A stretch of DNA of 64,000 nt from Haplodiscus bocki (Eukaryota): NCBI GenBank assembly GCA_965655095.1, contig OZ296659.1:2356001-2420000 (forward strand), written 5' to 3'. This document shows positions 22,240 to 48,874 of this stretch, one piece after another. Both the position numbers and the translations under genes were made by a program. Under the pieces are notes generated by a model. That model was not told the DNA's origin. It ran no database searches and saw nothing but the letters and a program-made list of their open reading frames with translations. Each line of letters starts with the position of its first letter. Within the stretch, counting starts at the first letter, position 1.

Positions 22240-23524
22240 CTGAAATAAATAAAAGCCGTTCTCTCAGATGATCACTTTGTTTTCAATAGTGTACCACAAT
22301 GAAAGGAATAAGAATTCATTTCTCACAAATACTATATAGTTAATCATTGTTTTTGCGAATTGAAAATTATAATGTACCCAAACAGGCTCATTTATTGCAT
22401 TTAATTCAAGCCCAACATTTAACATTCGAAAATAACTGGCTACAGAGACCAATTTGAGCCTGCATTTGCTACATGTTCCGATCAAACTGTAAATTCAATT
22501 AGTTTTGAAAACTGAACAGCGGGAACATGCATATTGGTATCAACTTTTTTCCAACGTGGACCTCACTTTCACATCCTTTTCCTATCTTCCTATGGTATCA
22601 GCCTCATAATACATAGGAGGGGAAATGTCGAAAGCATAGAAAAATATCATCTAAATGAATTGCAATCATTTTAAAGTCTCCTAATATTATACATTTCCTA
22701 AAACTTACGTTCAAAAGATTTTATAGTACATGTCAGAATTTCTGAGAATTTGCGCGTCTTGCCGAAAATGAAAAGTATTTTACCTGTTGAAAGACCGAAA
22801 GCCTAACTGGGCAATGCAGTTATGAACGAGCAGCTCACTTGGCTTAAATGAGTGATAATAAAATGTTTCGAATCTTACCAACAATTTTTCCTTTGCAACA
22901 CTTTACAGCAATTATTTCTGCTCATCAGAAGCACTTGCATTGAAAAAAGGCATCAAGCGCTGAGAATTTAGATGAAGTTACAAATGGAATTTAGCGAATT
23001 TATAAAAAGTTCCCATGGCCTTGAAAATTCACACAATTCAAAGCCTCAAAATTTTCGGATTATACAATGGTCTTCAGGTGTTCAACGCGATGAATGGTCA
23101 CCGTTTTGAGCAAGTGGAAAATATGATGCCAACAACATTGACAAGTTTCAGATAATACTTGAATCAATTAAAACAGAAGAAATGGACGAGTAAAAAAAGA
23201 CGTTCGCTCTAGCTAGGGGAAGAAAAATAACAGGCGAAGCAGAACATCGCAACGCATTCTGACTTGTGAGCTGAGATCAAAGATAAAGTTTACACAACAA
23301 AGGTCTTGAGACATTTGAACCTTGATCCCATACACACTTGACGCTGAAAAACTAAAACAGGTATCTATCAAAAGGTTCGAAAGAAAAAACGAATTGAGGC
23401 AAGTACCAGGCACAGTGTCTTTTACTCGAAAAATTGATCTGCCAACCATGCCTTTTAAAATTTGCCATTGTGCAGTCCAATGTTTAAAATATTTACATAG
23501 TAGAAAACACAAAAATGGATATTA

Positions 23525-24276
23525 CTAGGTGTTCCAAAAACCGTTACATGTGAAAAATGTCAAGCTCTTTAAATAATTATTAAACAACAAGACCGCAAAC
23601 CAGCTCCAAAAAATTCTCATCCCACTTATCAATCATGAGGACTTTTGACTGAGGTAAAACATGAAAAAGTTGCAGAATTTCGATCAAATAAGTGTAAGCA
23701 ACTTCAGAATTGAAAGTGGTCAATTTCACAATTTGAGATTCAGTTTCAATTTTGACACAGAAATGAAGCTGTGCTTCAGAAAATTTGCGCCAATGGAATA
23801 CTTGTGAGCAAATCGAACAAGTTTAACTATTATAAAGGGATCACGGGATACTACAAAAGCTACTGATTAAAGGATTAGACAGAAATTTAATTAACTCAGT
23901 TACTTCGCATAGATTTCTATACAAGTGTAATAAGCACAAACGGCGATAAAAAAATATTTAATAATATAGCAATAATATTTCATTTGCTTCATATTTTAAA
24001 CACAAACACAGATTCTGAAGCGAAAATGACACCATGGTAGAGCATGCGACTGCGGAGCAAACGGTCCAGGCTCGAGTCTAGGCAACTCTTTTTTTGGTCG
24101 AATCTAGGAACTTGAGTTAGTTGTGAACTGATCGGAGAAAAATTAAGATTGTTATAATGTAATGGATAACAGGCGGTATGTGCCAACTTGAAAGAAGTTC
24201 CGATGTTTTGTTTACTACTATCAATCATTTTGAGAACCGGAATTTTTACATGTAACGTTTTTTTGGGGACACCGAA
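23525..24276. mobile_element. Tc1/mariner-like MITE with nested repeats
   Basis: Imperfect IR ggtgttccaaaaaccgttacatgtgaaaa / ttttacatgtaacgtttttttggggacacc, flanked by TA on both sides. Confidence 0.5.
24030..24190 (+). repeat. tRNA-derived SINE (related copy ~61135-61260)
   Basis: A-box TGGTAGAGC, B-box-like GGCTCGAGTCT (GGTTCGAGCCT in the second copy), shared body tttggtc.aatctaggaacttg. Confidence 0.55.
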
Positions 24277-24698
24277 TACAGTGCTCACATTGATATTTCA
24301 CTCGGTTTTTTCGGGTTACACTATTTTGCCACCCAATATTGAAGAGAACCGCTGGCCATTTTTGACCGTTTAGACACGATGACTAGAGTCTCTCTGATGA
24401 CGTCACAAAATGCAAATTTTGTACAGGATAAAAAACTATGCATAAGCCACTTTCCAATACACATTCCTCTTTTCAGCTGCATAAACGTAAATGTAAAGTG
24501 TAATAAATGAATGAGAGTAAACAAAAAAGAACTTATCCAGCTTCACTCAATCACTCAGCTGGCAAGTCACGAATCGGTTTGAGAAAGATGCTCGAAGATG
24601 CAAACAAAAAAAAACGAAATAAAATCTAAAGGCCTATCGGCTTAATGACAATTATTTTTTACAATAATGCTCACCACTGCACTAATGTGAGTATTGGC

Positions 24699-24876
24699 AG
24701 TAGTATTGTAAGGGGGGGGGTTTAGTGCTATTTTGGCTCCTTTGCAGTTTTTGCACAAATAAGAAAGTTTTGCAGTATATTGACAAAGAAAACTTCTTTG
24801 ACAGCCCATTGACAAGTGAAACCACTAAAGCGAACCCAAAATAGATTTGACAGCTGGCTGACAGGTAAATATACAT
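24699..24876 (+). repeat. Left terminal inverted repeat of the Polinton
   Basis: AGTAGTATTGTAA-G9-TTTAGTGCTATTTTGGCTCCTTTGCA...; aligns to the reverse complement of 39415-39603 with about 20 mismatches in the inner ~135 bp. Confidence 0.93.
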
Positions 24877-25680
24877 TTGTTCCAATTTTGATAAATTAAT
24901 CCTGACCCATCACGAATTCCAACAAAAACTGACACCGGGTGCCAAATTCAATAGATATAATACATTGAACGGCCTAACTATATTTTCGTACGAAAGCTTC
25001 TTTAATTCAACTGAAACTCTACGCAATTAAATGCAATGGTCGAATAATACCTTTACCGAAAACCTTCGACGAATAGCTGAAAAACTCAAATTGGCTGTTA
25101 CTCAAAGGGGATCGAAAACCATTTAAAATTGAACAAACTCCGATTTTTACTGAGAGAGGGTTTTCCTTTTTTCGATGAATTTTTGAACAAGCAAACGCTT
25201 TTGTCAGATCGGCAGATTGAATAATCAATCTGTCTATGACATTTTGAACATTCGTTCGCGTGTTTTTTTTGGGCATCGAAGTCCCAGTTATCACGGTGAA
25301 TGAATAAAGCAGACGAGTGAATGTAGCGGACCGCGTAATGAACTCACTGCGTTTCTTCATTTTACATGTTCATCATGATGCCATTGCTGAAACACAATTG
25401 CTTAGTTTTACTTACTCGTTTTTTGGCTCACTGTTCCACTTGCTCGCTTCAATCTTTCGGCAATGACGTCAGAAAAACTTGGATGATTTCGAATAGCCGA
25501 GACACAGTTGACTATCTCCATCTTATATGGGATTTTTGAATGCTCTTGAAAATTTAATAGGTGAGGTATTTCGAATGTTCTGATTAATATAGTAAATCAA
25601 TTCATTAGGAGAATAGCTTACATTTTGTTTTCTTGATGAGGAAAACCCTCTCGTCAAAGTAAATCCTTCCATTGATAATC

Positions 25681-28600
25681 ATGTTATCCTGTGAAACTTG
25701 TGGTAAAATGTTCAAAACTCAAGGTTTCTTGAACAACCATCTCAGAATTAAGCACCAACTTAATATAATCAAAACTGCTGCTTCTTTCCATTGTGGGGAA
25801 TGTGGTGCTCAGTTCACTAAAAGCAAAAACCTTGTCAGACATTTGAGAAGTCAACATCAAACCGCGAACCCTCACAGATGTTACTTCTGTCCTCAATTCT
25901 TTGCAATGGAAAACTCTCTGAATGATCACGAGCAAAAGGACCATGGATTGAATGTGGAAAACGTCCCACGGAAAAGAGTCGCCAATCCTGCATCAATTGA
26001 AGCCACTACTGTGGCAATAAATAACAGATTCACAACTCATTGCTTAAAGCTACCAAAGGACGAACTTTCCATCGATCCATTCAATTATTTAGTTTCGCAG
26101 CAATCAAACATAATGGACTTCATTGATGCAGAACTTCAGAAAGTGCCCAATATGAAAGTTGGTTTTTCTATTTCTGTCGACCTTGTGAAACCTCTGAACA
26201 ATGACAAAATCACAGCTTTCTTCAATTCATGTCTGGTTAGAATTGCTCATAGCATCACAGATGAAGAGTATCTTGACCACGTGGACCAACTAATGTCTAA
26301 GCTCAATGTATTCGCTTCTTGTGGTTCTGGATGGGTGATTGAAAGTCTTAAATGTATCGAGGTCAAAACAGCGACATGCCAGACCCTCAACGGGTCCTCT
26401 TACATTGAGACACCTAACATTCTGAAGGGACTTTCGAAGAGTCTTTTGAACGTGAGAAACAAAAAGGACAATTTTTGTTTTGTGTATTGTGTAGCAGCCT
26501 CAATCTTTTCTTTCATCGGTCGAGCAATTTACCCAAAATCGCACAAAGAGAATGTCAAACGACTAAAATTCAACGCAAAGCGAATGCCAATGCCTTTATC
26601 CAGTATAGCACCATTCGAGAAAAGCAACAACGTCTCAATTAATGTGTATCAACTTGACAACCATAAACTGGTAGCGGTCTATTACAGTAAAAATAAAACT
26701 TCTAAACGACGTATCAATTTACTTCGTTTGGTCGACGGTTCCAAAAGTCATTACTGTCTGATCAAAAATTTTTCCAATTTGCTTCAGCGGCTCACTCGAT
26801 CAGAGAAGAAACGAAGGCACGGTCCTAAATCAAAATTCTGTTCAAATTGCTTCCAGCCCATTTTACGAAAAAATTACAGAAGTCACGCAAAGTTCTGTGA
26901 GTCAAATTCACCTCTTGAAATTCGCATGCCTCTTTCCTCGCCGATCATTGAGTTCGTAAATTGGCAGAAAACTCAAAGAGTTCCGTTTGTTGTTTACGCG
27001 GACCTTGAAGCCATCGATGTTCGTTCTGACAATTCAGTAAAAGCTGGCATGAACACAAAGGAAATTGAAAGACAGTACCCTTGCAGCTTCGGTGCCGTTC
27101 TCGTGGACGAAAGAAGTTGGTTTTAATTTTTCGTGTTTAGTTTTGCAGAATTTTGTTACAAGAAAAATATACTTTTTGGTTGACGAGACCATAATTTCAA
27201 ACCAATTATTATTTTCTGTTTAGGTAACGCTGTTATAAAGGAGAAGTTCTACAAAGGAGAGGACTGTATTATTCATCTTATGGATTTGCTTCGTTCTTGG
27301 TCTGCTTGGTGTTATGCTGAGAAACGTAGGTTCAAACAGTTGAAAATATCTACAGAAGACAGAATGATTTTGATGAACAAAGATCAAATTCTTTGTTGTT
27401 TGTGTGGAAGTAGTGTTGAGCGAGTAGAGCGAGTTATTCATCATTGCCACCTAACTGGAGAAGTTTTCGGAGTTGCTCATTCTAAATGCAATCTACGAGC
27501 CAAAACCACGCGGTTTTTACCTATTTTCTTTCACAATCTATCACGATATGATGCACACCATATAATCAAAAATTTGAAACTCAACAATGGTGAGAAGCTT
27601 TCAGCTATAGCAAAGAATGATGAAACCTACATTTCCTTTTCCTTGGATGTACCGATGGAACGATTCAAGAGCAAGTCGGGGCAGCATATCGTACTGTATC
27701 ATTCTTTACGTTTTTTAGACAGCTTCCAATTCATGTCCCAAAGCATTGACTCGTTAGCTAAAACTATTGACAAAGGAGACTTCAAGTTGTTGAAAGCAGG
27801 CTTCCCAGATATTGGAGAGGAATTATTCGAAAAAATAACCAGAAAAGGTGTCTTCCCGTACAATTTTCTCGATTCTTTTGAAAAATTCAATGAGCCTTTC
27901 CCACCTCATGGACCTCTGTGGTACAACAGTTTAACAAAATCAGTTGATATTACAAAAGAACAGCATACCTTTGCCTTGGGAGTTTACAACGATTTCAAGT
28001 GTAGAAACTTGGGCGACTATCATGATGTTTATTTACGAACCGACGTTTTAATTCTTGGTGACATTTTCCAAAAGTTCAGAGAGGTATGTATGCAAGTCTA
28101 CAACTTGGACCCAGCACACTTTTATTCGGCTCCCAATCTGAGCTGGGATGCAATGCTCATTACTACTGGAGTAAAACTAGAACTATTACAAGACATTGAC
28201 CAGCTTTTATTTTTCGAGAAGGGAATTCGGGGTGGAATAAATGGGCTGGGAGCCCTTCGCCACTTTGAAGCAAACAATAAGTACCTTGAAAACTTCAATC
28301 CAGATGAAGAGTCTACTTTTGGTGCTTTTTTTGACGTAACATCTCTATATGCTGGAACAATGCAAAAAGAAATGCCTGTTGGCGGTTATAAATGGTGCAC
28401 AGAAATCACTCTATCGGAAATTCTTTCAACATCTGCAGATTCTGCTTTTGGATATTTCGTTGAGGTGGACCTTGCTTATCCAGCCGAAGTTCATGACGTC
28501 CACAATGATCTGCCTCTCGCACCGGAAAAAATTAAAATTCCAACCGAGTGGAGATCTGATTACGCCAAATCATTCGGGTTGAATGTAGGTTCCTCAACTG

Positions 28601-30255
28601 AAAAACTTGTGGAAACTTTGCTCGACAAAACGCACTATATTTGCCACTACGAAAACCTAAAGTTCTATCTCAAGCATGGCCTAAAAGTTAAAAAACTTCA
28701 TAGAGTAGTAGAATTCCAGCAGTCGAAGTGGCTTGGAGCCTATATCGCGAAGAATACAACAATGCGAAAACAAGCATCTAATGACTTTGAAAAAAATTTT
28801 TACAAACTGATGTCAAACGCTTGCTTCGGCAAGACAATGGAAAACCTTCGGCGACGCGGTAATATGCGATTCGTTACCACAGAAGCACAAGCCGAAACCT
28901 TCGTACAACGAGCTACGTTCAAGAACTTCAAAATCATCAGCGATGCGCTTGTGTCAGTTTCTTTCAGCGCTTCGTCAGTAATTTGGAACAAACCTACGCC
29001 CGTGGGAGCAACTATTTTGGATCTTTCAAAGCTCTGTTTGTATAAGTTTCACTATGAAGAGATGCTGCCTCGTTATGGATCAGATCGGTTGAAGGTTGTA
29101 TATAAAGACACTGATTCTTTGCTTTATAGAATCCAAACTAACGACTTATATGCAGATATGTCAACATTTAAGCATCTTCTTGATCTTTCTGATTATCCCG
29201 AAGATCATATGCTTCACGACAAAACCAACAAGAAGGTTCCACTTACAATGACCGATGAACTGAATGGAAAAATTTTGAAGGAAGTGGTTTGCCTAAGATC
29301 AAAATTATATAGCATTGATTATTTGGGTGGAACAAAGCAAAGTGCCAAAGGTGTGCAAAAATCTGTCAAGAAGACTCTGCACCATAGTCTCTTTAAAAAC
29401 TGTCTTCTCTCGAAATCCACTGTACGAATAGAAATGACACAATTAAAATCAGTGGGGCATCAGATTGTGGTCAACTCTGTAAATAAAATAGCCCTCAGTT
29501 GTTTTGACGACAAGCGGTATATCTTGGATGATACTGTGTCCTCTCTAGCATATGGGCATTACTCTCTCACTGTCTCTCTACAAGAGTCTAGTAAGTCGGA
29601 AAAAGTCGAATGTAAAAGTTAAGCATTTTAAATTACTTTTTTTGATCGAAAATTTTTCTTTTGTAGCCAATAACGAATCTCATACTGAATCTGACACTAC
29701 GAGTGAGGCTGTTGACGAAATTTGCACTGATACTGATGATAATAATGCTGATCATGAAACGGACGAGGAAGATGTGGATGTTGACAGTACTGCTTCTACT
29801 GCAAGCAATTACAAAACAGCGTCAGCGAGTTGCTCCGCAAACGCTCTATTTGTAAACAATGATGGGCCCTTGGCCAAAGCATGGAATGCAACAAGCTCTT
29901 TCTGTGAGTTGGTAACACTCGATTCCATACCCAATTAATGTCATTCGTAGTGAATTGTACCGTCCAATACTCAAGGATTATTAAAACGTTTTCTCCTTTT
30001 TCAGCCAGTCCCGACCCAGGATATTTTCTAAATAGAAAAAACGACCTTGACTCCGATGACGAAGCTCATTGCATTGACTTCGACGACGATTTTACTGATG
30101 ATGAAGCAAGTCTAACATCCAACCGCTCACCAAGTTGCCCCTTCATTGAATATGAAGCGGAAGAGACCGAGTCCGCTTATCAAAATGATAATGATGATAG
30201 TGCCTTTGCCGTTTGTTCGTCATACAAACACAAACGTCCGAGAACTCAGTTGTAA
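25681..30255 (+). CDS. Protein-primed family B DNA polymerase (pPolB), spliced: exons 25681-27115, 27224-29590, 29667-29903, 30005-30255 (~1429 aa)
   Basis: In order: three C2H2 fingers; GSGW motif; OTU/papain-like DNFCF...SHYCLI; ExoI YADLEA; EndoVII-like CxxC...HCHLTG...AHSKCNL; ExoII FHNLSRYD; RKGVFPY; ExoIII YLRTDV; pol A DVTSLY, B KLMSNACFGK, C YKDTDS; acidic tail ending KHKRPR. Three GT-AG junctions restore the frame (4290 nt total). Confidence 0.93.
27116..27223 (+). other. Spliceosomal intron 1 of pPolB (108 nt, phase 1)
   Basis: GTTGGT...ttttctgtttag; T-rich; two in-frame stops (27124, 27181). Removal gives ...VDERS-NAVIKEKFYKGEDCIIHL, joining ExoI to the rest of the exonuclease domain. 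Confidence 0.88.
29591..29666 (+). other. Spliceosomal intron 2 of pPolB (76 nt, phase 1)
   Basis: Canonical GTAAGT donor and ttttcttttgtag acceptor; removal joins ...LQES to TNNESHTESD... in frame with ORF 29552..29938. Confidence 0.82.
29904..30004 (+). other. Spliceosomal intron 3 of pPolB (101 nt, phase 1)
   Basis: GTGAGT donor and ttttctcctttttcag acceptor; removal joins ...ATSSF to SSPDPGYFL... in frame with ORF 29938..30255. Confidence 0.82.
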
Positions 30256-30313
30256 CTATAAAAAAGCTTAGCCTAAAAATACACAGTATTAGCCCTGGAA
30301 AGTACCGAAACTT

Positions 30314-30319
30314 TTTATT
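30314..30319 (-). terminator. Putative polyadenylation signal (AATAAA) for the minus-strand virion gene block
   Basis: AATAAA ~53 nt after the protease stop, in the gap between the convergent pPolB and protease genes. Confidence 0.4.
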
Positions 30320-30371
30320 ATGTTGGTCTCAGCGAAAGCATTTCAAAGATTTGAATTCTAAATTTTTACCG

Positions 30372-31001
30372 CTAAATAATTTTATACAAAAGGTTTGTTT
30401 GACAGTGATCATTGCAAAATAAAACTAAATCTATATCTAGCAAACTTTTCAACGGTTGGAATACAGACAAAATAAATGATTCCAAACAGCTCAAGCTAAC
30501 TGATTGCTGTTCAAGTTTCCGTATCAAATAATGAGCAACGTAGAGGCAAAAGAGACCGCAAGTATTTGAATATGGAGACTGTAGGGGTATTTGTAGTTCT
30601 CGAACTTTTTGAATTTTCGATTGTTTCGAAACTTCTTGCAAATGATTAAAAAATGACGGGTAACTTTTGATAGGTTTGCCCAGAGGATCCCAAACACAAA
30701 ACATTAGATTTTGTTTCTCTCTGTGAACGGGCGGTTGTTGTTCTTCACATAGTAGAAGCAAAAGCAACCAATGCTTTCCCAGACCTCCAGCTCGTGATGT
30801 GTTTACAATGAAATAAGATTGGACAAGTAGCTTAGAAGCATCGCCATTGAATTTCTTTTGTTTTCGGATTGTCTTTTTGCGGCTTTGTGGTGGCGAACAG
30901 TGCAATAAACCAAAGTTGTCTGCTGACCACACCCCGGAAAATTTTGCTCTCGATGTAGCACAACAATTTTGGGCTATTTTAGCTAAAGTGAAGTTATCCA
31001 T
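30372..31001 (-). CDS. Adenain-like cysteine maturation protease (PRO)
   Basis: GVWSADNF, FIVNTS...GKHW (catalytic His), VWDPLG (Asp), LQSPYSNTCGLFC (Gln/Cys). ATG at 31001 overlaps the MCP stop. Confidence 0.92.
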   Translation of the reverse strand: MDNFTLAKIAQNCCATSRAKFSGVWSADNFGLLHCSPPQSRKKTIRKQKKFNGDASKLLVQSYFIVNTSRAGGLGKHWLLLLLLCEEQQPPVHREKQNLMFCVWDPLGKPIKSYPSFFNHLQEVSKQSKIQKVRELQIPLQSPYSNTCGLFCLYVAHYLIRKLEQQSVSLSCLESFILSVFQPLKSLLDIDLVLFCNDHCQTNLLYKII

Positions 31002-32364
31002 TGATGAGACTGTTTTTGGAAATGTTACGAGTAGCGTCAATAAAGACTTGACTAAATCGTTCACCGACAAGAAAAAGCTCTACCGGGTTAGTTAGAGCTT
31101 CCGAAAAATGCAACTTCAAAGTAATACCGGCGCCCGTAAGCTCTGGGAACAAAGTGAGAGATTTACCGGCTTCTCTGGACGAAGTTAGATCGAAGACTAG
31201 AAAGTAATGATTTTCTTCAAAGTCGGTAATTTCAATTCCATTGCCGCCTCTCGTGAAACCGAGAGCACAAATTGTGTTGTAGAACAGACGAGTGTTTTTG
31301 GTAGTGTCAATCGGTGTTCCAGCAATTGGAACGCCATTGCCGCGCTGAATTTCAATTTTGCTCAGCTGAAACTTTTGGTATTGGAAAGGCGTGTTTTCAA
31401 ATGTTGATCCACGAAAAAATTTGTTTCTGACCATACAAACGGTTAGTCTTCGCACAGGTTCGGTGCCAAAAATATTTTCTTTAACAAAACAGTTTTGTCC
31501 GGCCTGAATGATGAAGCTCTTGTTTAGGCTCTCAATATATGGGTACACTGCTGGACTCTTTGTCAAAGCCCTTTCAATGCTGACTTTGACAGAGTCGGAA
31601 AGGACAACCTTGTTAACAAACAGCGAGGCTTTTTCAATCACTACTGAATACGGTGTCTGGTCAACCCTTTTAATATCTGCAGCTGACCATGTGCCCACAC
31701 TTTCAAGTGCACAATTGTTTGGAGATCTGTAAAACCGCAAGTGAAGTGTCACACCAGGTAGCAGAAGGCGCTCACAATCCAAAAAGTCTATGTGTGGTGC
31801 TCCATAGAGCTCAAGATTGAACTGATCACCCCTTCTAAATTCTGCCAATGCTTTTTCTTTCGTTTCTTGACTCGATTTCGCATTTGCTCTGTAGCGATAC
31901 CCCTGACACGGAGCCCACGTAAGTTTGCTGCCAATATCTGTTGTCAGTTCAGTTTCGATGAAAGCCAAGTGGTGGTAGTTGTTGTTGCTACTTGAAATCA
32001 ATTTACCATTTAGAAACATCTCCACATGTGAGAATAAAGAATGTAAGGTGTTGTTGGCAAAAATGAGGTCTACGTCTGCAGGTTTCACTTTTTCACTTCC
32101 ATCAGGTTGGTAAATGCAAATCTCTACAGCTAGGCAAATCCGGTTCAAATCTATACAGTTTTTGTTTTCTGCAGTGACGAAAAAATCCAATTGAGGTCCG
32201 CGGCATCCTACGTGGGGAAACACCTCTTGATCGAAAGAGCCTTCATAATTAATCAGAACACTTGGCCGGTCAAAAAAGTCAAGAGCGCTATGCGTGACTG
32301 GATTGGCAATCTCAGATGATCGACTAAATAAAGTTGTTGCTGTTCCACTGATGCCTGTTGCCAT
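30994..32364 (-). CDS. Major capsid protein (double jelly-roll; PY/hexon-like), 456 aa
   Basis: Polinton MCP motifs NNTLHSLFSHVEMFLNG, NNNYHHLAFIE, RLLLPGVTLHLRF, PFQYQKF, FLVFDLT, LKLHFSEAL; size and position are typical. Confidence 0.9.
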   Translation of the reverse strand: MATGISGTATTLFSRSSEIANPVTHSALDFFDRPSVLINYEGSFDQEVFPHVGCRGPQLDFFVTAENKNCIDLNRICLAVEICIYQPDGSEKVKPADVDLIFANNTLHSLFSHVEMFLNGKLISSSNNNYHHLAFIETELTTDIGSKLTWAPCQGYRYRANAKSSQETKEKALAEFRRGDQFNLELYGAPHIDFLDCERLLLPGVTLHLRFYRSPNNCALESVGTWSAADIKRVDQTPYSVVIEKASLFVNKVVLSDSVKVSIERALTKSPAVYPYIESLNKSFIIQAGQNCFVKENIFGTEPVRRLTVCMVRNKFFRGSTFENTPFQYQKFQLSKIEIQRGNGVPIAGTPIDTTKNTRLFYNTICALGFTRGGNGIEITDFEENHYFLVFDLTSSREAGKSLTLFPELTGAGITLKLHFSEALTNPVELFLVGERFSQVFIDATRNISKNSLING

Positions 32365-32387
32365 CGTTTCCGTGCGCTACTCTTGCT

Positions 32388-32960
32388 TCAACTGAAATTG
32401 ACTTTGGACAAAATATCGGACCGACTTCTCTTGGCGGGACTCTTTTTCAAAATGACTTTCCTACAAACTGAAGGACCGGATTCTGAATTGCGACTTTTGA
32501 GTTTGTTATTGCTTTTATTGGCTGCTATCACTTTTGCACGCCCATGACCGGGCGCACGCCCGCGGCGTCGTTCCGCGCGCCTAGTCGCCGCAGCGCCGCC
32601 CGCCCCGCCACCGCCCGCCCCGCCACCGCCCGCCTCGTTGCCGCGCGCCACGGAATCCCATTCCTGGGTGGCATCCATGATAGTTTTTCTTGCTGATTTT
32701 TTCAATACGTCTCTCACCGCTTTGCGAGGTCGCTTTTTTCCGGATACAATGCTGGTGATTTCAGGAACGAAAGACGAAACTAGGTTTCTACCCAGCTCTT
32801 TGGCCACCGGAAAGATATACTTTTTCATCAAAGGCATCGCCACTCGTCCCATTCGCATAGCAAATGCACCCATGCCACCCGAGCCAAACTGCCGTGCCGG
32901 TCCGTGAAATGTAGACTGCTGATGTTGCTGTCGAATTTGAAAATCATAATGAGTATCCAT
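32388..32960 (-). CDS. Basic core/membrane-active virion protein (adenovirus pX/pVII-like Polinton core protein), ~190 aa
   Basis: QFGSGGMGAF protease-site-like motif, amphipathic helix AMPLMKKYIFPVAKELG, Arg/Lys-rich C-terminus; lies between mCP and MCP. First ATG is at 32960 (the track ORF starts at TTG 33140). Confidence 0.7.
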   Translation of the reverse strand: MDTHYDFQIRQQHQQSTFHGPARQFGSGGMGAFAMRMGRVAMPLMKKYIFPVAKELGRNLVSSFVPEITSIVSGKKRPRKAVRDVLKKSARKTIMDATQEWDSVARGNEAGGGGAGGGGAGGAAATRRAERRRGRAPGHGRAKVIAANKSNNKLKSRNSESGPSVCRKVILKKSPAKRSRSDILSKVNFS

Positions 32961-33028
32961 ATAGCTATGCAGCCTGCACTTTGTCCGACTGCTTCCCTGG
33001 GCCGTCTTTAGAAGAAATGATGATGGTG

Positions 33029-33030
<2 letters not shown>

Positions 33031-33105
<75 letters not shown>
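33031..33105. repeat. (GAT)25 microsatellite inside the Polinton
   Basis: 25 perfect GAT units with degenerate units on both sides (33017-33112). Confidence 0.97.
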
Positions 33106-33106
<1 letters not shown>

Positions 33107-33132
33107 GTGATGGGCTCAAATAATTGATCTCA

Positions 33133-34086
33133 TTAATCAATCCGCTTGCGAAAGTGTAAAGTAAGATTTGTGCGGCCGCGATTTAGAAACGGAATTAGGT
33201 GGCCAGTTTCATTGCGGAGTGAAACCGTGATAGATTCAATGCTAGACTTGACAATGCGCCGCCATTGAAGGTTGCCAAAAGTTCGATAATTCTGCTGGTG
33301 TTGGCTCCCACCAGTCTGTCGTTCATTCAAGGGAATTGCTCGTAGCAATGCACTCTGGGTGTCTCCCACAATTTCGTTTTGTACCAAATCGCAATAAAGA
33401 AAAATTGTGTTGCAACCACCGGTGAGATCCGTGGGAAATTTCCCGACCGTTTTGGATAACGGTTTGTTGCTCTGCTCTTCGATCGGTTGTGTGAATTTTT
33501 GAGAGCAGTCAATTAGTGTTTTCATGCCAAGGACATTTATTAAGTCTTCGGATATGGCTTCCAAAAACATACAGTCTTGTTTGGGACCCTCATAGTAAAC
33601 TTTCAAGGATTCTGATGGCTCATCTAATTTCCACGAAAGAGGAAACCTGCCATCGGCGTGCTCTTCGAAGATTTTTTTGCAAATTGAACGCATAATGTGG
33701 TCGATACTCACGTAGACACCTGGCTTGATGTTTGTAACTTTTTCAATAAACTTTTCTTTAATAGGTAGTGTTGGAGGGACGTACATTGTAATCATTCCAT
33801 AGGGCTTTCTTTTTCGCTTGTTTTTTCGAACTTCATGGCTACTGCCGCTTTCGTTCTTTTCAGTTTCTCTCATTGCTGTCACCACCGGAAGACGGTATTT
33901 AAACTGACCTGATGTTATATTCTGAATTGACGCAGGCCAAGCAATTTCGGACAAGGCTACTTCCCAGGAACCCGTTAGGGTAAGTTGTTGAGGTAGGAGT
34001 GTTGTAAACCGGGAAAGTGTGTTTTCGGGAAACGTGGCCATGGATGCGTTCGAAATCAAGTTTATAGTGAACTCTTCCATTGACAT
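33133..34086 (-). CDS. Minor capsid protein (single jelly-roll penton; PX), 317 aa
   Basis: FTINLISNASMATFPENTLSRF...LTGSWEVALSEI at the N-terminus; FLYCDLV...VGDTQSALLR...IPF...LTLHFRK at the C-terminus. Confidence 0.9.
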   Translation of the reverse strand: MSMEEFTINLISNASMATFPENTLSRFTTLLPQQLTLTGSWEVALSEIAWPASIQNITSGQFKYRLPVVTAMRETEKNESGSSHEVRKNKRKRKPYGMITMYVPPTLPIKEKFIEKVTNIKPGVYVSIDHIMRSICKKIFEEHADGRFPLSWKLDEPSESLKVYYEGPKQDCMFLEAISEDLINVLGMKTLIDCSQKFTQPIEEQSNKPLSKTVGKFPTDLTGGCNTIFLYCDLVQNEIVGDTQSALLRAIPLNERQTGGSQHQQNYRTFGNLQWRRIVKSSIESITVSLRNETGHLIPFLNRGRTNLTLHFRKRID

Positions 34087-34139
34087 TTTTCGTGGATTCT
34101 ACTAACGCAATGCGGTGGTAGTTAAAATGTGAGAATATG

Positions 34140-35135
34140 CTATTGTTCAAAGCGAGTCAACTCGGCTTCGTAAAATTTGCCTTCTATCAGCTGATTGTTG
34201 GCGTCTTTTATAGTGTATGTGGGAGGGTTCAATGTTTGCACTGTGGCTATGGTAAACACTTCCTCGGTAAATTGAATGCGGTAGCCTCGATGAAATGTCT
34301 CAATTTTTCGTTTTATTCTCACTTGCTGGCCAGTTTTGAATTTGGGTTGGCGGATTCGGTTGCAATTTTGAAGTGATATCAAGTAAGGAACATCATTTTT
34401 ATGCACATCTTTCGGTGCTAACTTGGTGATACGATTTACCCGACTATTGATAACATTTACGAATTGTTGCAAGTTTTCAATGTAAGTGTCCGTATTGTTT
34501 TCATGTAGAAATTTGAAAATAAGTGTTTTCAATGATCTAATGTTTCGTTCAGCAAAAACTGATTTGGTTTCACTATGTGTTGAGTAAACATTGATGTTAT
34601 TTTTTTGGCAGAATTTAGAGAACTCGCCAGCAAACTCTCGACCTTTATCGACCCAGATTTTTTCTGGCTTGGGCTGATTAATCGATTTTGTCTGACAAAA
34701 CTTTGGTTTCATCATTGCTTTTTGGCAGTCATTTCGCGAACAAAGTGCTTCTAGGATTTTCTGCAATGCATTTTTACATTCTACAGCTGTCTTTTTCTTC
34801 AAGGGCAACGCCCAAACGAAGCGACTGAGAGTGTCTACCGCTACTAAAATGAAATTGACGCCATGGTTATACCTAGATAACTTCTGCATATCAGCCAAAT
34901 CAACAGACCAAATTTCATTTAGTCGGAAACTCTGCACTTTCAACCTAGGAAAACGGTTTTTGGTTTGCTTGAACTTTGTGTAGGTCTCACTGCAGTTCAA
35001 GTAGTTGTCCACTTGCCTGTAACTGCATTTCGACGCCCTTTTGAGAGCATTTCGTCCAGCAAAGGCTGATGGGTTGTTGCAGGATGTGTAGAAACTGTGT
35101 ATTTTGCTGTGGGCTACAGATTCCTTTGTAAACAA
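34140..35135 (-). CDS. Retroviral-like (RVE) DDE integrase of the Polinton; no upstream in-frame ATG, no C-terminal chromodomain
   Basis: WSVDLADM (D1), VDTLSRF, IWVDKGREF (D2), FAERNIRSLK (E), RGYRIQFTEEVF, GKFYEAEL. The first Met lies after D1. Confidence 0.92.
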   Translation of the reverse strand: MFTKESVAHSKIHSFYTSCNNPSAFAGRNALKRASKCSYRQVDNYLNCSETYTKFKQTKNRFPRLKVQSFRLNEIWSVDLADMQKLSRYNHGVNFILVAVDTLSRFVWALPLKKKTAVECKNALQKILEALCSRNDCQKAMMKPKFCQTKSINQPKPEKIWVDKGREFAGEFSKFCQKNNINVYSTHSETKSVFAERNIRSLKTLIFKFLHENNTDTYIENLQQFVNVINSRVNRITKLAPKDVHKNDVPYLISLQNCNRIRQPKFKTGQQVRIKRKIETFHRGYRIQFTEEVFTIATVQTLNPPTYTIKDANNQLIEGKFYEAELTRFEQ

Positions 35136-35358
35136 GTCTTCTCGTCACTGCGCATTTTGAGCACAAAAATTCAGCTTCTCTTTTGTAGTCCCTAACGTGT
35201 TGGAGACCACTGCATTTGAAGTGGACCCAACCGCAAATGTTGCACCATACGGATGGCTTTTGGCGTGAACCTCTGCCCAAAACTTCAGCACAGTTGCCAC
35301 AGTAATATTTTGCTGTTCGTATAGATTTTGATTTCCTACCGTCCGTTCTCTGTCCCAT
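34987..35358 (-). CDS. PHD finger ORF overlapping the integrase 5' end (probable N-terminal module of the integrase)
   Basis: YYCGNC...VWCNICGWVHFKC...FLCSKC is a C4-H-C3 pattern; ATG at 35358; the integrase frame is +1 relative to it. Confidence 0.8.
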   Translation of the reverse strand: MGQRTDGRKSKSIRTAKYYCGNCAEVLGRGSRQKPSVWCNICGWVHFKCSGLQHVRDYKREAEFLCSKCAVTRRLVYKGICSPQQNTQFLHILQQPISLCWTKCSQKGVEMQLQASGQLLELQ

Positions 35359-35423
35359 AGTTTAGCGAGCAACTGTTTGGAAAGGAATTTGTTTCGGGAA
35401 ATGAATAAAAAAGAGTTGGTAGC

Positions 35424-36077
35424 TTAGTATAATCGCAGCCATTTGGCGGTCGAGCAGCTTCCAACTTCTTCGATTTCATTGCTATCATAACGCGCCACTT
35501 CCGTTGATACACGTTTTGCATTCGTGTTGGCGAGTAGAAAGGTGGGCAATTTCAGTCGCTTGACTAAATCTAGGGTGGTTTCGCTTAGGTTTTTTGTTGT
35601 TGTTTGCAGGTCATTTAGAAAGTCAAAAACTGTTAGACCAAGATCCCTGTCATGAAGAAGCAGTCGACTTGAGTCGCGATCGATCGATACGACATTACAT
35701 TGATCAATTTTTTGGAGAATTTGTCGTGCCCGCTCAACTTTTCCGCCCGAGAGTCCCGACGATAACAAATCCAGAACAATTTTGTCCGTTTTCGCAATCG
35801 TTTTGGTTCTGTCGGCTATTGTATCATCAAGCGTCGCTTCCTTCCGCTTTTGTGTCTGTGCCAATCTAGAATTCAAGTTTAATTGAGCACAAAGCTTTCC
35901 TTCGTCAAACTGCGATGTGTTACCGTTCTGTACAGCGCCACACGCGTTCAAATTGTCTTGAATGGTGACGTCTAGGTTTGTGCTTTTCGATTCAATTGGC
36001 GGTTGTTCGTGGACCGGAATTTTCGAGGATAATAAACACGTGTATTCATCCAACGTTATCAAAACGAACTCTTTCAT
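35424..36077 (-). CDS. Polinton protein of unknown function downstream of PW, 217 aa
   Basis: Intact ATG ORF packed 1 nt after the PW stop; MKEFVLITLDEY N-terminus and helical C-terminal block resemble the ORF that usually follows PW. Confidence 0.7.
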   Translation of the reverse strand: MKEFVLITLDEYTCLLSSKIPVHEQPPIESKSTNLDVTIQDNLNACGAVQNGNTSQFDEGKLCAQLNLNSRLAQTQKRKEATLDDTIADRTKTIAKTDKIVLDLLSSGLSGGKVERARQILQKIDQCNVVSIDRDSSRLLLHDRDLGLTVFDFLNDLQTTTKNLSETTLDLVKRLKLPTFLLANTNAKRVSTEVARYDSNEIEEVGSCSTAKWLRLY

Positions 36078-36078
36078 G

Positions 36079-36411
36079 CTACTGTTTTACAACGATTCGT
36101 TTCCTCAAATGAAGCAGAACCGAGGACTGAATCAGATTTAAGAGTTTGATACCCCTCTTGGAAGCTAGAAGCTGGCGTTTCTTATTAATCTTGCTCTTTT
36201 TCTTACAGAGAAAGTCAATGTCGGCCTCATGCCTCTTCAGCTTCTTTTGTGATACGTTCGCAGTCATCTTTATTTCACCATGTACAACGTTGAAAAGACA
36301 ATTGCAGAAAAATTTAACAATTTCAATGGAACAGTGTAGAATGAACATTTGCTTCAAAACAGGTTTCATTTTACTGAATATTTCAAGTGTATAAAAGTCG
36401 CGTTGACTCAT
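36079..36411 (-). CDS. Polinton PW-like small basic protein, 110 aa
   Basis: FFCNCLFNVVHGEI...KKLKRH...KKRQLL..KRGIKLL pattern of PW; adjacent to the ATPase. Confidence 0.78.
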   Translation of the reverse strand: MSQRDFYTLEIFSKMKPVLKQMFILHCSIEIVKFFCNCLFNVVHGEIKMTANVSQKKLKRHEADIDFLCKKKSKINKKRQLLASKRGIKLLNLIQSSVLLHLRKRIVVKQ

Positions 36412-37084
36412 CGTTAACGATTTCTTTCGTTAAATTTGTGGAAATATAAAATACAGTAGGCTGAGAGCCAGTACAGTTTGAGCAATACTTCAATTTGGGG
36501 TCTGTCTGTGGGTCCAAATCAATTAACAAGTGACCAAACTGTTTATGGGTCGCTCTTTTATACGCCTCCAAGAGAAGTTTTCTGTCACCCAGCTGTCTAC
36601 CTAACACCCCAATTTGCTCAACGTCACGAGGACTTTTGAAAAGAATCATTTGCGTTACATTGAGGTCAATCGTTTTTGAGTTTTTTGCTGGTTGGTAAAG
36701 ATTGTGTCTTAAAGTCATCAAATGTATATTACGGTGTCTCCCAGCAACAACCAAGTTCAGAAAAGTAGCATCTTCGCAGGCATCTTGATATAAATCATCG
36801 ATAACCACTAGCGTTCTCCACTTCGCAGCCTCACTTTTATCTACTGCGGCCCATTGAAGTCCTTGATGAAATTCGATTGATATCTTTTCGCGTGTACATC
36901 CCAATAAAAGTGATTCGTAATGAGGTTGGAAGTGTTTGTAAAGGTACAAAATATTCTCGAAGCTCGGCTTGAAAATGTTTTTTTGATTGAGAATTATTTG
37001 AGACACCAAATGAGTTTTACCACAACCACCCGGACCCACGATCGAAATGAAACAATGAGGGTTCGTATAAATTTTTTTGTTCAT
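36383..37084 (-). CDS. A32/FtsK-like genome packaging ATPase, ~233 aa
   Basis: Walker A GPGGCGKT, Walker B LVVIDDL, GRHRNIH (Arg finger), LFKSPRD, FGHLLIDL; ATG at 37084. Confidence 0.94.
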   Translation of the reverse strand: MNKKIYTNPHCFISIVGPGGCGKTHLVSQIILNQKNIFKPSFENILYLYKHFQPHYESLLLGCTREKISIEFHQGLQWAAVDKSEAAKWRTLVVIDDLYQDACEDATFLNLVVAGRHRNIHLMTLRHNLYQPAKNSKTIDLNVTQMILFKSPRDVEQIGVLGRQLGDRKLLLEAYKRATHKQFGHLLIDLDPQTDPKLKYCSNCTGSQPTVFYISTNLTKEIVNDESTRLLYT

Positions 37085-37377
37085 GCTTTTGGACCAGGGA
37101 TGATGTATCCAACGCAAGCCGATAGTAATGCTAGTACTCCAGAATGATAGTTTGTTTGCAAGCTTAGCGCCAAATAGCCGATACTAAACAAAACGACCAC
37201 AAAGATGATCAGATAGTGTAGTGCCAGAATTAAAAAAGCTCTGTTGCATGTTGTTTTTTTTTCGAAACAGCATAAATTCACTTCAAATGGAGATCTCTCT
37301 TTCCTTTGCTCGTCAAAAATAACGCTTTCGATATTGATAGAGTCAGGAAAGTCAATACTGGAGCGACTGTTATTCAT
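37081..37377 (-). CDS. Small two-transmembrane-helix protein, 98 aa
   Basis: Hydrophobic segments FLILALHYLIIFVVVLFSIGYLAL and GVLALLSACVGYIIPGP; ATGA overlaps with both neighbours. Confidence 0.78.
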   Translation of the reverse strand: MNNSRSSIDFPDSINIESVIFDEQRKERSPFEVNLCCFEKKTTCNRAFLILALHYLIIFVVVLFSIGYLALSLQTNYHSGVLALLSACVGYIIPGPKA

Positions 37378-37625
37378 TGATGATGCTCAATATTGAATTG
37401 ATGTCCGGCCAAGTTCAACAAAACATCCAAAATTTGGTAGAGTCGTTGCAATTCAATCAAATTCAGATGAACTCGATTCAAGATATTTCTGTTTTTTGAA
37501 CTGGCAAGAGTAGGTTGCTCTAGACAGACTAATGTTGTTTTGGGATTCAATCGGCCAGTTAAATTTGTTGTGCTTGAGATGGGGATGGAGATTGAAGTTT
37601 CGACGTAGGACTGGACGACTGACAT
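37374..37625 (-). CDS. Hypothetical protein, 83 aa
   Basis: ATG ORF within the tightly packed gene block; its stop overlaps the next ATG (ATGA). Confidence 0.6.
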   Translation of the reverse strand: MSVVQSYVETSISIPISSTTNLTGRLNPKTTLVCLEQPTLASSKNRNILNRVHLNLIELQRLYQILDVLLNLAGHQFNIEHHQ

Positions 37626-37649
37626 CTGTGGAGACTAAATTTGAAATGA

Positions 37650-38066
37650 TTAAAGACAGTATTTCTTGTAGTCTGAGCTTTTGTAAACTTTCATGTGAAA
37701 CCAGTAAGCGAGGCCAGTGATATGTCCTAAGAACATACTGTTTGCGAAAATGGGTTTCTCTGAGAGTGCATAAACGTAACCAGGTCCCACGTTATAATTA
37801 CTTTTCATGAATCCAAAAGCATCGTGAAAAATTGCATGGAGCCGAAATAGTTTAAAATACGTGAAATATCTATCCAGAAAGCTGTTCCCTGGTCCTATAA
37901 GACCTCCAAACTCAGCCATTTCATTGACGAAATGCAGGTTTACTTCTTTGTTTATACTGTAACATACTGCTAAAAAAGCGTTTTTGCGTCGAGAGTTTTT
38001 GGGGAAGAGAAAAGTTATCATATTTAACGTACACTCCAATTCATTGGCAGTTAAAATAGTGCGCAT
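37650..38066 (-). CDS. Parvovirus-type phospholipase A2-like protein (PLA2X-like)
   Basis: GGLIGPGNS (Ca-loop-like GPGN) followed by LHAIFHDAFGF (HD catalytic pair). Start uncertain (38135, 38105 or 38066). Confidence 0.6.
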   Translation of the reverse strand: MRTILTANELECTLNMITFLFPKNSRRKNAFLAVCYSINKEVNLHFVNEMAEFGGLIGPGNSFLDRYFTYFKLFRLHAIFHDAFGFMKSNYNVGPGYVYALSEKPIFANSMFLGHITGLAYWFHMKVYKSSDYKKYCL

Positions 38067-38131
38067 TTTGTAATACTCAAATGTGAAGTGAAAATTCAAC
38101 TGCATTGAATGAAGTTTAAATGGAAAGTGAT

Positions 38132-38980
38132 TCAAGGAAACTGTGTATTCTCATCAAAAAATGTGAACAAATTTGAATGATACTCAAAATCATCTCGATT
38201 GACGCGTGAAATAGTTATGTTTTGTTCTTCAACACATTCAAAACAATAGCATTGTGCATTGGAACATCCCAAATCTACTTTCAATGTGTTGCTGTGATGT
38301 GAAGCTTCTATTGTCCCAAAACCACGCATAAGAATGTCTATATAGTCCACAACAGAATCTTTGAAAACTGCATCGGATTTTTGTAGTTGCAGTAATTTAT
38401 TACACAAATGAGCAACTCTGTCTGTGTCGTCCATGCCTTTGAATGGTGAATAGCTTTCGCGTTGGAACTCCCAAATAACTTTGTACTGACAGCCCAAATC
38501 GAAAGTCACCTGAGAGGTCGATATCATGCCCAGCCTGTCACCGTATATTCGAAGACTGCTGGACGAACTTTTCATTTCCATCTTTAAACATAATTCAGGA
38601 TAGGTGACACTGTACAGCCTGACATTACAGTCTTTTAGTCCGTTTTTCTCGAGTGTCATCGCTAAAGCTTTTTTGAAATAGGACTCTGCTCCAACGAAAG
38701 TCTTGATATAAAAAAGTAAGTGGAAATGGGGAAGAGTTATTCCTGAACAGATATCTTCACAGCCATGCGCGTGGAGTCTTAGAGTGTATTCACAGTTCGT
38801 TGAAGCAACAATTGTTTTGATAACTTCACTGAGTGTTCTTGGTAAATCAAAGTCAATCGTTTCAGCATATGTTTTCGCGCTGTTTGAGGGTGATGGAATT
38901 GGATCTGCTGCGGAATCCTCCTCGCAGTAAAATATCAAGTAATAGAAGTTGCTGGGCATTTCACGAAAGATACTTGTCAT
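38132..38980 (-). CDS. Protein with a putative HUH-endonuclease fold plus a C-terminal Cys cluster, ~282 aa
   Basis: ATG in a good Kozak context (ccgccATG); motif LPHFHLLF; C-terminal CSNAQCYCFEC. The ORF is solid; the fold assignment is inference. Confidence 0.6.
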   Translation of the reverse strand: MTSIFREMPSNFYYLIFYCEEDSAADPIPSPSNSAKTYAETIDFDLPRTLSEVIKTIVASTNCEYTLRLHAHGCEDICSGITLPHFHLLFYIKTFVGAESYFKKALAMTLEKNGLKDCNVRLYSVTYPELCLKMEMKSSSSSLRIYGDRLGMISTSQVTFDLGCQYKVIWEFQRESYSPFKGMDDTDRVAHLCNKLLQLQKSDAVFKDSVVDYIDILMRGFGTIEASHHSNTLKVDLGCSNAQCYCFECVEEQNITISRVNRDDFEYHSNLFTFFDENTQFP

Positions 38981-39414
38981 GGCGGAGGCGTTTGGATAAA
39001 TGGCGACTACTTTTGTCACAATTCTCAGCAGATCTTAGCTCGGTTATGTAATGTTTTCTTTCCACTTCTGTGGAATTTTCCATGAAACCAAAAGAGTTTC
39101 TAGCACAGTCCCGGTCTCCGTCGATGTTGTTGGAAATCCGCGGCGTCAGCGGCGGCAGGAGTGCGTGTTAGGGTCTGTGCTAGAAACCCCTTTAAAACAG
39201 TCAATTTGGTGGTATACCGTGGTAAAAACTCTTTTTACCTCTGTATACCACATTACAAAATTCGTTACTTTCATCTCAATTATTCATTATTTTACTGGGT
39301 TCTGAGGCATGCTGAGTTAATGGTGAGTTTTGGAAATTTTCTGCTACATGTTGCTTTCATTCTTTAATAGAAGTTTTGTTATTATCTTAACATTACGTTG
39401 ACTAAGTTAGGTCC

Positions 39415-39603
39415 ATGTTTATTCAGCTGTCAGCCGGCTGTCAAATCTAATTTGGGCTCGCTTTTGTGGTTTCACCTGTCATTAAGCTGTCAGATAAGTT
39501 TTCTTAATCGATATACTGCAAAAATTTCTTAATTGTGCAAAAGTTGCAAAGGAGCCAAAATAGCACTAAACCCCCCCCCCCCCCCCCCCCTTACAATACT
39601 ACT
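39415..39603 (-). repeat. Right terminal inverted repeat of the Polinton
   Basis: Reverse complement of the left TIR; the C tract is 20 nt (39571-39590) versus G9 on the left. Confidence 0.93.
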
Positions 39604-39671
39604 ATTGGCCATTTTTGTTTTTTTTTCAAAAAAAAACGAAGCTTTCGTTTCAACAAAGTAATTTCACTAAC

Positions 39672-39967
39672 AAACGAAGGTCTCCACGACACTGCAGTTG
39701 CTTCCACAATGTGTACAAATATGCACACTTTTGCCCCCTCCTCCCCCTCCTTTTCCACCTCCACCGGTTCGTTTCCGGTTGGTAGCTTTGGTGACATCAC
39801 ACCCCGATTCTGATTGGCTAGAAGAGACGGAGACGTCTTTGGATTCTCCCCCTCCTGTGTCAGATGAAGAGTTGTTTGAAGTAGCAGGAGGCTCCAAATC
39901 GTTTTCAATTTCTGCAACAGGTACAGAACAAGCATATTTGAAGTTCATGTCAGCTCCATTCAAAACC
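39672..39967 (-). CDS. CLPX: Host mitochondrial ClpX (Clp protease ATP-binding subunit), exon encoding the Gly-rich linker and first half of the C4 zinc finger
   Basis: Translates ...GGKGGGGGGKSVHICTHCGSNCSVVETFV, matching metazoan CLPX [24 protein letters not shown]. Donor GTTAGT begins at 39671 (phase 1). The acceptor (tttcaaag, ending 39968) is less certain. Confidence 0.85.
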
Positions 39968-47900: not shown

Positions 47901-48874
47901 TCTTTATTTTGGAAGCTTTATGCCATAAGGAAAATTGGTGGTGGTTTCAGGACAAACAACTTACGATTGAAAAAATTTCGTCCGAACCTTTGATCTTTAC
48001 TTTTGAACTTGGTGCATCATTTGGCAGAGAAAAACCATTTTGACATTTCAAAATGAACAAAAACTATATTCTTTGCAGAGCACTGAAATTGATGTACAGT
48101 TTTCCAAAAGTTTCAATATTAGGGGTGATCAATTTAGATACAAATAAATTTGAGAATTGGAAATGGAATTCTATATTTATCGAAAGATTATTCTTCGCTT
48201 GACGAAACATTCTAGAGGTTTTACACCATCTGAAAGTCTTGTAGAAAGTCATAAACTTTTCCTTCAAAGATCAGTTTTGTTTTAATGGAACTCCGGGGCT
48301 CTGGCTATTGACTTAACAGGACGGGCGAAAGTCTAGTAGGAATAAACTGTAGAAATTTTGTAGACTAATGGCGATTTGGAAGGTCGGGAAAAAAATTATC
48401 CAAGTCACTTGTCGTAAAAGGAGAAATGTCTATTTTGATGGTTTTAAGAAACAAAGCAAGCAGAGAACAGCTCAAAAACGCAAAACTCAAAAGTGAGGAG
48501 GAATGCGTTCTTGTTTTCCTAGTATCGTAGTTTTTCATGAGATGCAGTGTTTCAATGTTGAGCAGCATTTCTCTGAAAGAATTTGATAGAACATTTCTTA
48601 ACGAAGCGCACCAGTCAATCAAATTATGCGGGTGCAATATGTTCAAACATTGACTCAGATTGAGCAGAAAAGACCATTTTCATCAAAGTTAATTTTCATC
48701 CGATACTTGAAGTAGAAACCAAACCGTATCCAGGTTTGAGAAGCTGCCAAAGTTGTCATGAAGCTAAAGCGAGCGTTCGCAGAGCACGAATAACCTAGAA
48801 TGAAAAAGCTTAACTTCATTAGTTTGACGGTCTTCTAATGTGGACTAAAAATGTCATTCTACTGCAGTGAGCAT
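41907..48874. mobile_element. ~7-kb foldback/palindromic element with nested inverted repeats and possible hAT transposase remnants
   Basis: Outer IR 41907-42137 / 48659-48874; inner IR ~42476-44880 / ~45240-47631 (mirror ORFs 42702..42947- and 47159..47404+ are nearly identical). HPHNL and TPNI...FSALQRI at 48064-48646 resemble hAT motifs. Confidence 0.75.

Follow-up and report, generated by a model that had tools for sequence, protein, structure and literature searches.

The Polintons or Mavericks of vertebrates and nematodes (eupolintoviruses, adintoviruses) are elements of about 15 kb with terminal inverted repeats and a 6-bp target-site duplication, which carry genes for a DNA polymerase of family B that uses a protein primer (pPolB), an integrase, an ATPase, a protease and probable capsid proteins in two facing modules, and their core genes are described as intronless. 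In the available sections of PMC8097293 intact vertebrate Mavericks have no introns, in agreement with Kapitonov and Jurka (2006), large insertions are taken as decay, and intact elements are defined by intronless open reading frames (ORFs); the accessible text of a nematode preprint (10.1101/2022.07.12.499685) likewise gives the core genes as intronless. An earlier note on the DNA examined here likewise had it that Polinton pPolB genes are usually described as single long ORFs. Here we describe a stretch of 64,000 nucleotides from Haplodiscus bocki (assembly GCA_965655095.1, contig OZ296659.1, positions 2,356,001 to 2,420,000 of the forward strand; the window), which contains a Polinton/Maverick of this make-up, with ATPase, protease and capsid genes that are probable, whereas its pPolB gene is divided by three GT-AG introns that are conserved between families.

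Conserved spliceosomal introns in a core gene are unusual for Polintons, which are described as intron-free, although related viruses splice. Our literature search found no description of an intron in an animal Polinton polymerase; most subscription papers, Repbase and supplements lay outside its scope and may hold some. The portions available of PMC8502044, 10.1101/2023.08.22.554363, PMC12220804, PMC11296320, PMC5803895, PMC6431247, PMC8363768 and 10.64898/2026.07.28.741278 contain no spliceosomal intron in a Polinton polymerase. Spliceosomal introns do occur inside Polinton-like elements as the eupolintoviral introners of dinoflagellates, described in the sections at hand of PMC12166617 as multi-copy, transposon-derived, for the most part acquired once the element had integrated, and lying largely outside coding regions. 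Unlike these, the introns in the window are old, conserved in site and inherited with the element, and intron 1 matches Polinton places only. The adenovirus E2B unit is likewise a case in which a polinton-related virus makes its protein-primed polymerase from spliced RNA, but there upstream exons are joined to separate exons for the terminal protein precursor (pTP) and the polymerase (PMC11304566, text seen in part), whereas the introns described here lie inside one frame for terminal protein (TP), vOTU and polymerase. Mirusviruses too have spliceosomal introns in essential genes, patchy among close relatives and read as a sign of nuclear transcription; they are unrelated viruses of protists, and their introns lie mainly in virion genes and are in part mobile (PMC12768974, available text).

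The three gaps in the pPolB gene of the window are probably old, ordinary GT-AG introns of a Polinton/Maverick polymerase transcribed in the nucleus, likely to be spliced by the host and kept as the element is copied. Four forward-strand ORFs join into one frame of 4290 nt and 1429 codons, with no stop in the exon translations, across gaps of 108, 76 and 101 nt that all have GT..AG ends and lie in phase 1; the earlier note gave the coordinates of this model correctly. It was right, too, that the acceptors are pyrimidine-rich (fractions of 0.80, 0.67 and 0.93 in the 15 bases before the acceptors of introns 1, 2 and 3) and that the donors resemble those of the host gene, which we name CLPX from its motifs and whose visible donors are GTTAGT (39671), GTTAAC (22057) and GTGAGA (13051). 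In a gap of such base make-up GT..AG ends are expected by chance with p ~0.003. The gene product matches the protein-primed family B polymerases (PF03175, E 7.6e-24), and its N-terminus matches adintovirus PolB folds. Intron 1 contains two in-frame stops, as had been noted (TAA at 27124, TGA at 27181), and its junction at residue 479 separates ExoI (YADLEA, residue 439) from ExoII (582), ExoIII (748), PolA (849), PolB (1006) and PolC (1105). The last conserved polymerase motif, YGHY at residue 1255, precedes junction 2 at residue 1268, and therefore intron 1 alone breaks up the enzyme; introns 2 and 3 fall in an acidic tail outside the catalytic core. The claim that splicing is required for a functional enzyme, which the earlier note rested on intron 1, is supported.

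Junction 1 could be scored in 57 of 60 further loci. In 51 of these an insert of 66-126 nt stands at the same codon, 42 of the inserts being GT..AG in register, and the remaining six loci have no insert and exactly one codon at the junction. Intron 1 measures 108 nt in family A (that of the window), 112-126 nt in B, 108 nt in C, 118 nt in C', 111-114 nt in E and 66-70 nt in F, with all three length classes modulo 3 represented; families D1 and D2 do not have it. Compared between families A, B, C, C', E and F, the interiors are at or near the level of shuffled sequence (z -1.8 to 3.6), as against z 8.9 to 28 within families, and the flanks match the window at 64-93% of codon positions 1 and 2. 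Ends that stay the same while interiors drift are the mark expected of selection for splicing in replicating elements, because GT..AG is so improbable by chance in any one gap, yet all six lineages with unalignable interiors have it. Relatives in the databases that do not have the insert can be aligned over the junction without a gap. Many ORFs in public protein sets end at or just past the intron 1 site while others run through it without a gap, and ORFs from other assemblies are broken there as well. Calls of about 475-506 aa finish at this point or slightly beyond, and others of about 785 aa begin after it, so that ORF-based screens do split the gene, as had been predicted. Two family F loci (L129 and L130) have an intron 1 of 66 or 69 nt that can stay in frame, and therefore resemble single 1300-aa frames carrying an insert.

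Sister copies of the window's family, whose comparison the earlier note had proposed as a check, keep these segments: intron 1 is present in 27/27 loci scored (the best 27 after the window's own, of 40 genome matches) and introns 2 and 3 in 29/29. One sister lies on another contig and is flanked by a 6-bp duplication of its own; it is 99.4-99.7% identical and has all three introns, and intron-bearing elements have therefore been copied recently. The flanks match as a target duplication in two of three sisters checked, and most copies in the genome are degraded. Matches to intron 1 elsewhere in the genome lie at Polinton places in 20/20 cases (in a search with intron 1 alone), and the intron has no clean terminal repeats.

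At the 3' end of the gene, 57 tails gave 38 open spliced models and no open unspliced one. The last intron is in phase 1 in 38/38 open tails, with its acceptor 8 bases (36 tails) or 11 bases (two tails) before the DPG motif in a model search that allowed 0-15 bases; it is also found in family D, which does not have intron 1. Intron 2 is clear in families A, B, E and F, and in C and D was read partly by eye. The DPG and PFIxxEA motifs of the tail are conserved through the whole clade, and the latter may resemble acidic motifs of Spt5/Spt6 that bind histones or chaperones. In deep-branching relatives whose contigs are long (P0033, P0260, P0280) the same motifs lie contiguous in one frame; the tail is therefore older than its introns. 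The closest named homologues are from the acoel Convolutriloba macropyga, and the host is therefore probably an acoel. In one cluster from that species the long-contig ORFs P0015, P0290, P0293 and P0294 stop two residues past the intron 3 site, where the RefSeq proteins XP_075250921.1, XP_075241726.1 and XP_075245649.1 continue into the DPG exon, joins that would lend independent support to intron 3. The gap-free alignment to intronless relatives that had been proposed as a check is obtained at junctions 1 and 3 but not at junction 2, where the stretch is unalignable.

From these comparisons, and with the GT donors, AG acceptors and pyrimidine tracts of the U2 type, the gaps are very probably real spliceosomal introns, and the splicing machinery of the host is likely to be needed to make pPolB. 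The integrated element would be transcribed in the nucleus by host RNA polymerase II, and the host spliceosome would remove its introns constitutively, at every transcription of the gene. Removal of intron 1 would be required for a whole exonuclease-polymerase, and removal of introns 2 and 3 would add the acidic tail only. The introns are likely to be kept because an element whose splice sites do not work cannot make the enzyme and be copied. Their conservation also points to transcription by polymerase II in the nucleus and to a long stay in one host group. Several observations weigh against this account. The introns contain only loose candidates for branch points. In family A the bases of the intron 1 splice sites are kept in 91/108 cases and interior bases in 1884/2187, so that the expectation of constant GT/AG ends and drifting interiors holds between the six families but not within family A, where the sites decay about like the interior. 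In older copies decay has gone on at similar rates in all three codon positions and in the splice sites; these copies behave like dead insertions, with no sign of host use, and the case for selection therefore rests on the comparisons between families. Intron 2 lies in a poorly conserved stretch in which an equal position across all families is not demonstrable, the Convolutriloba joins are gene models, and no spliced full-length product of the window's family was found among 44 longer proteins.

The earlier note had also suggested a possible tissue- or stage-specific switch, as in the P element. With such a switch, retention of intron 1 would give a 481-aa zinc-finger/terminal-protein/vOTU product acting as primer or repressor, and its removal the whole polymerase. 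In the Drosophila P element the key enzyme needs splicing, the third intron is germline-specific with proven regulated retention, and the retained intron yields a repressor; for the pPolB described here the comparative evidence counts against such regulation, and we consider it distinctly unlikely. Three lineages nested among intron-bearing ones are without intron 1, at least one of them with several similar copies in the genome, and the retention product is not conserved, since the stop comes at once in families B and C and two codons later in A, and one F copy reads through the intron in frame. RNA that retains an intron in this way would probably be destroyed by nonsense-mediated decay. The cut, moreover, falls within the fold of the exonuclease, past two of its predicted strands (residues 437-448 and 463-475), and not at a domain border. 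A switch would accord with the model of exon 1, which matches C2H2 fingers, Y-family polymerases and adintovirus PolB N-termini, and with the conserved site of intron 1, at which a phase-1 GTTAG donor gives an immediate stop, although GTTAGT is also a donor of host CLPX. Adenovirus, according to the available text of PMC11304566, makes terminal protein and polymerase from differently spliced E2B RNAs, and a switch, if true, would be an adenovirus-like separation of primer protein and polymerase achieved by regulated intron retention.

Introns might also help a long viral RNA to escape host silencing or to leave the nucleus, which is compatible with their being ordinary constitutive introns; as an explanation we think this unlikely, and an anti-silencing role is possible, if weakly supported. 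A host gene (L144:1276-3423, + strand) has a DUF3715 domain above the Pfam cut-off, presumably of the TASOR/TEX15 type, but a single domain match does not establish a HUSH complex. Only the longest gene of the element has introns, the coding frames of the capsid, ATPase and protease ORFs being continuous where compared, but lineages without intron 1 have spread too. HUSH silences long intronless RNAs and introns protect them, whereas spliced stuffers with bare splice signals gave no protection and repression tracks A content, which is 41% in L1 ORF2 (PMC8770142, sections available) and 31-32% in the exons here. Translation of the finger/terminal protein/vOTU part and the polymerase as two proteins, with the tail pieces unused and no splicing needed, has precedents in the separate terminal-protein gene of a coral polinton (PMC11161782, in the part available) and in the best viral fold match, a stand-alone N-terminal protein of 560 aa from Drosophila-associated adintovirus 2. 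It is nevertheless highly improbable, as the break parts ExoI from ExoII/III, six lineages retain both the GT-AG ends and the one-codon register, and the tail motifs are conserved, and contiguous in the deep-branching relatives. Barely credible is a reading of the gaps as copy-specific insertions, decay, assembly errors or recent introner insertions. Degraded copies are in the majority and introners are known from dinoflagellate polinton-like elements (PMC12166617, available text), but every scored copy of the family carries the introns, other assemblies break at the same site, and intron 1 is confined to Polinton places and is without clean terminal repeats; a copy-specific insertion is refuted by the family copies, the diverged families and these Polinton-only matches. 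Group I or II self-splicing introns were rejected on the absence of any Rfam match across 24600-39700 and on lengths of 66-145 nt, and rescue by frameshift or read-through on insert lengths that vary modulo 3 and on the several stops.

Ordinary host-spliced introns remain the reading we prefer, and the history of intron 1 can be followed on a polymerase tree of 21 rows. Of these rows 11 bear the intron, including four (P0005, P0008, P0144, P0164) whose status was inferred from N-terminal residues at the protein ends; rows of unknown status were left out. At least four changes are needed, in 200/200 bootstrap trees counted, and the tree test (LG+G4) rejects a single clade of intron 1 bearers with p-AU 2e-7. 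Four gains at one codon and phase would take no more steps than a single gain followed by three exact losses; we judge the latter the more likely. Intron 3 would be the oldest of the three; intron 1 may have arisen a single time and then been lost precisely on about three occasions, or recombination may have carried it between families. Recombination is a plausible route: the capsid, integrase and ATPase of family D2 are 79-91% identical to those of the window, and its polymerase, which has no intron 1, is only 38% identical in exon 1 and 58% in exon 2. With at least eight polymerase families in one genome and at least four gains or losses of intron 1 at one codon, these elements offer a compact natural setting in which to study how introns are gained and exactly lost, within DNA that brings no reverse transcriptase with it. 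ORF-based counts would overlook lineages that carry introns and are still being copied, because in at least one large survey a copy had to be intronless to pass as intact. Module swapping is itself apparent among the loci: in D2 the polymerase is distant from that of the window and the capsid module is close, and family C shows the reverse (L104, L105 and L120 versus L082, L083 and L098; L106 and L108 versus L097 and L100).

The element extends over 14,905 bp (24699-39603) and has AGTAGT ends. It is a Polinton/Maverick, as its inverted repeats, ATTGGC duplication and opposite-strand ORFs for an integrase and for a probable protease, capsid and ATPase show, with pPolB forming the left arm. It adjoins the donor of the CLPX intron in which it lies, at a distance of 68 bases. 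The features are listed below.

Table. Features of the Polinton/Maverick and its surroundings (positions in the window)
Feature	Position	Strand	Remarks
Left target-site duplication ATTGGC	24693..24698	.	same six bases at 39604-39609
Left terminal inverted repeat, AGTAGT start	24699..24876	+	88% alike to right repeat over 165 nt
pPolB exon 1: three C2H2 fingers, likely terminal-protein and vOTU domains, ExoI	25681..27115	+	1435 nt
Intron 1, phase 1, GTTGGT..TTTAG	27116..27223	+	108 nt; two in-frame stops; splits exonuclease domain
pPolB exon 2: Endonuclease_7-like insert, ExoII/III, polymerase motifs	27224..29590	+	2367 nt; PF03175, PF02945
Intron 2, phase 1, GTAAGT..TGTAG	29591..29666	+	76 nt
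pPolB exon 3: acidic Ser/Thr-rich tail	29667..29903	+	237 nt; 79 codons, skippable in frame
Intron 3, phase 1, GTGAGT..TTCAG	29904..30004	+	101 nt; most widely shared of the three
pPolB exon 4: acidic tail, conserved DPG and PFIxxEA motifs, basic end, stop	30005..30255	+	251 nt
Ulp1/adenain-like protease ORF	30372..31001	-	PF02902 E 0.002, weak Pfam match just under cut-off
Probable major capsid protein ORF	30994..32364	-	weak Capsid_N E 0.052; from size and place; 57-97% conserved in sister elements
Probable minor capsid ORF	33133..34086	-	inferred from size and place only; no match in Pfam profile search
PHD finger and retroviral-type integrase	34140..35361	-	PF00665 E 8.1e-08, PF00628; frameshifted between the parts in the window copy
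Packaging ATPase ORF	36383..37084	-	PF04665 E 1e-4, just under Pfam cut-off
Right terminal inverted repeat	39415..39603	-	
Right target-site duplication ATTGGC	39604..39609	.	
Host CLPX intron holding the element	22240..39671	-	17,432 nt; donor GTTAGT

The PHD finger and integrase are in different frames in the window copy, with the break near 35.1 kb, and in one frame in several sisters; the integrase gene of this copy is broken or mis-assembled. The two terminal repeats (24699-24876 and 39415-39603) differ by 12%, and a sister that is 99% identical inherits the same asymmetry, which suggests a chimeric element that was still copied.

The predicted fold of exon 1 resembles Y-family polymerases and adintovirus PolB N-termini and has vOTU-type Cys/His motifs; the order of its domains fits the TP-vOTU-EXO-PALM layout of PMC11161782, which, in the text available, links the Y-family polymerase fold to the terminal protein. 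The alignment-based model has a predicted local distance difference test (pLDDT) score of 84.6, compared with 31 for a single-sequence fold, and gave no PDB match at E <= 0.001. A PDB sequence search with exon 2 returned no match, a scan of viral contigs no relative, and the listed starts of the window's family no poxvirus-type TAAATG. The 560-aa protein of Drosophila-associated adintovirus 2 (BFVD A0A7D4VFN9) matches exon 1 alone, and the polymerase gene of that virus may be split or spliced too; the word 'intron' does not occur in the text of the paper describing it.

A long ATG/CAT triplet repeat (33017-33106) separates the probable minor capsid ORF from the basic ORF that follows, and GAT expansions similar to it are found in exon 3 of family B copies. 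Beyond the element, the window contains a large nested inverted repeat (41938-48852) with arms up to 98% complementary.

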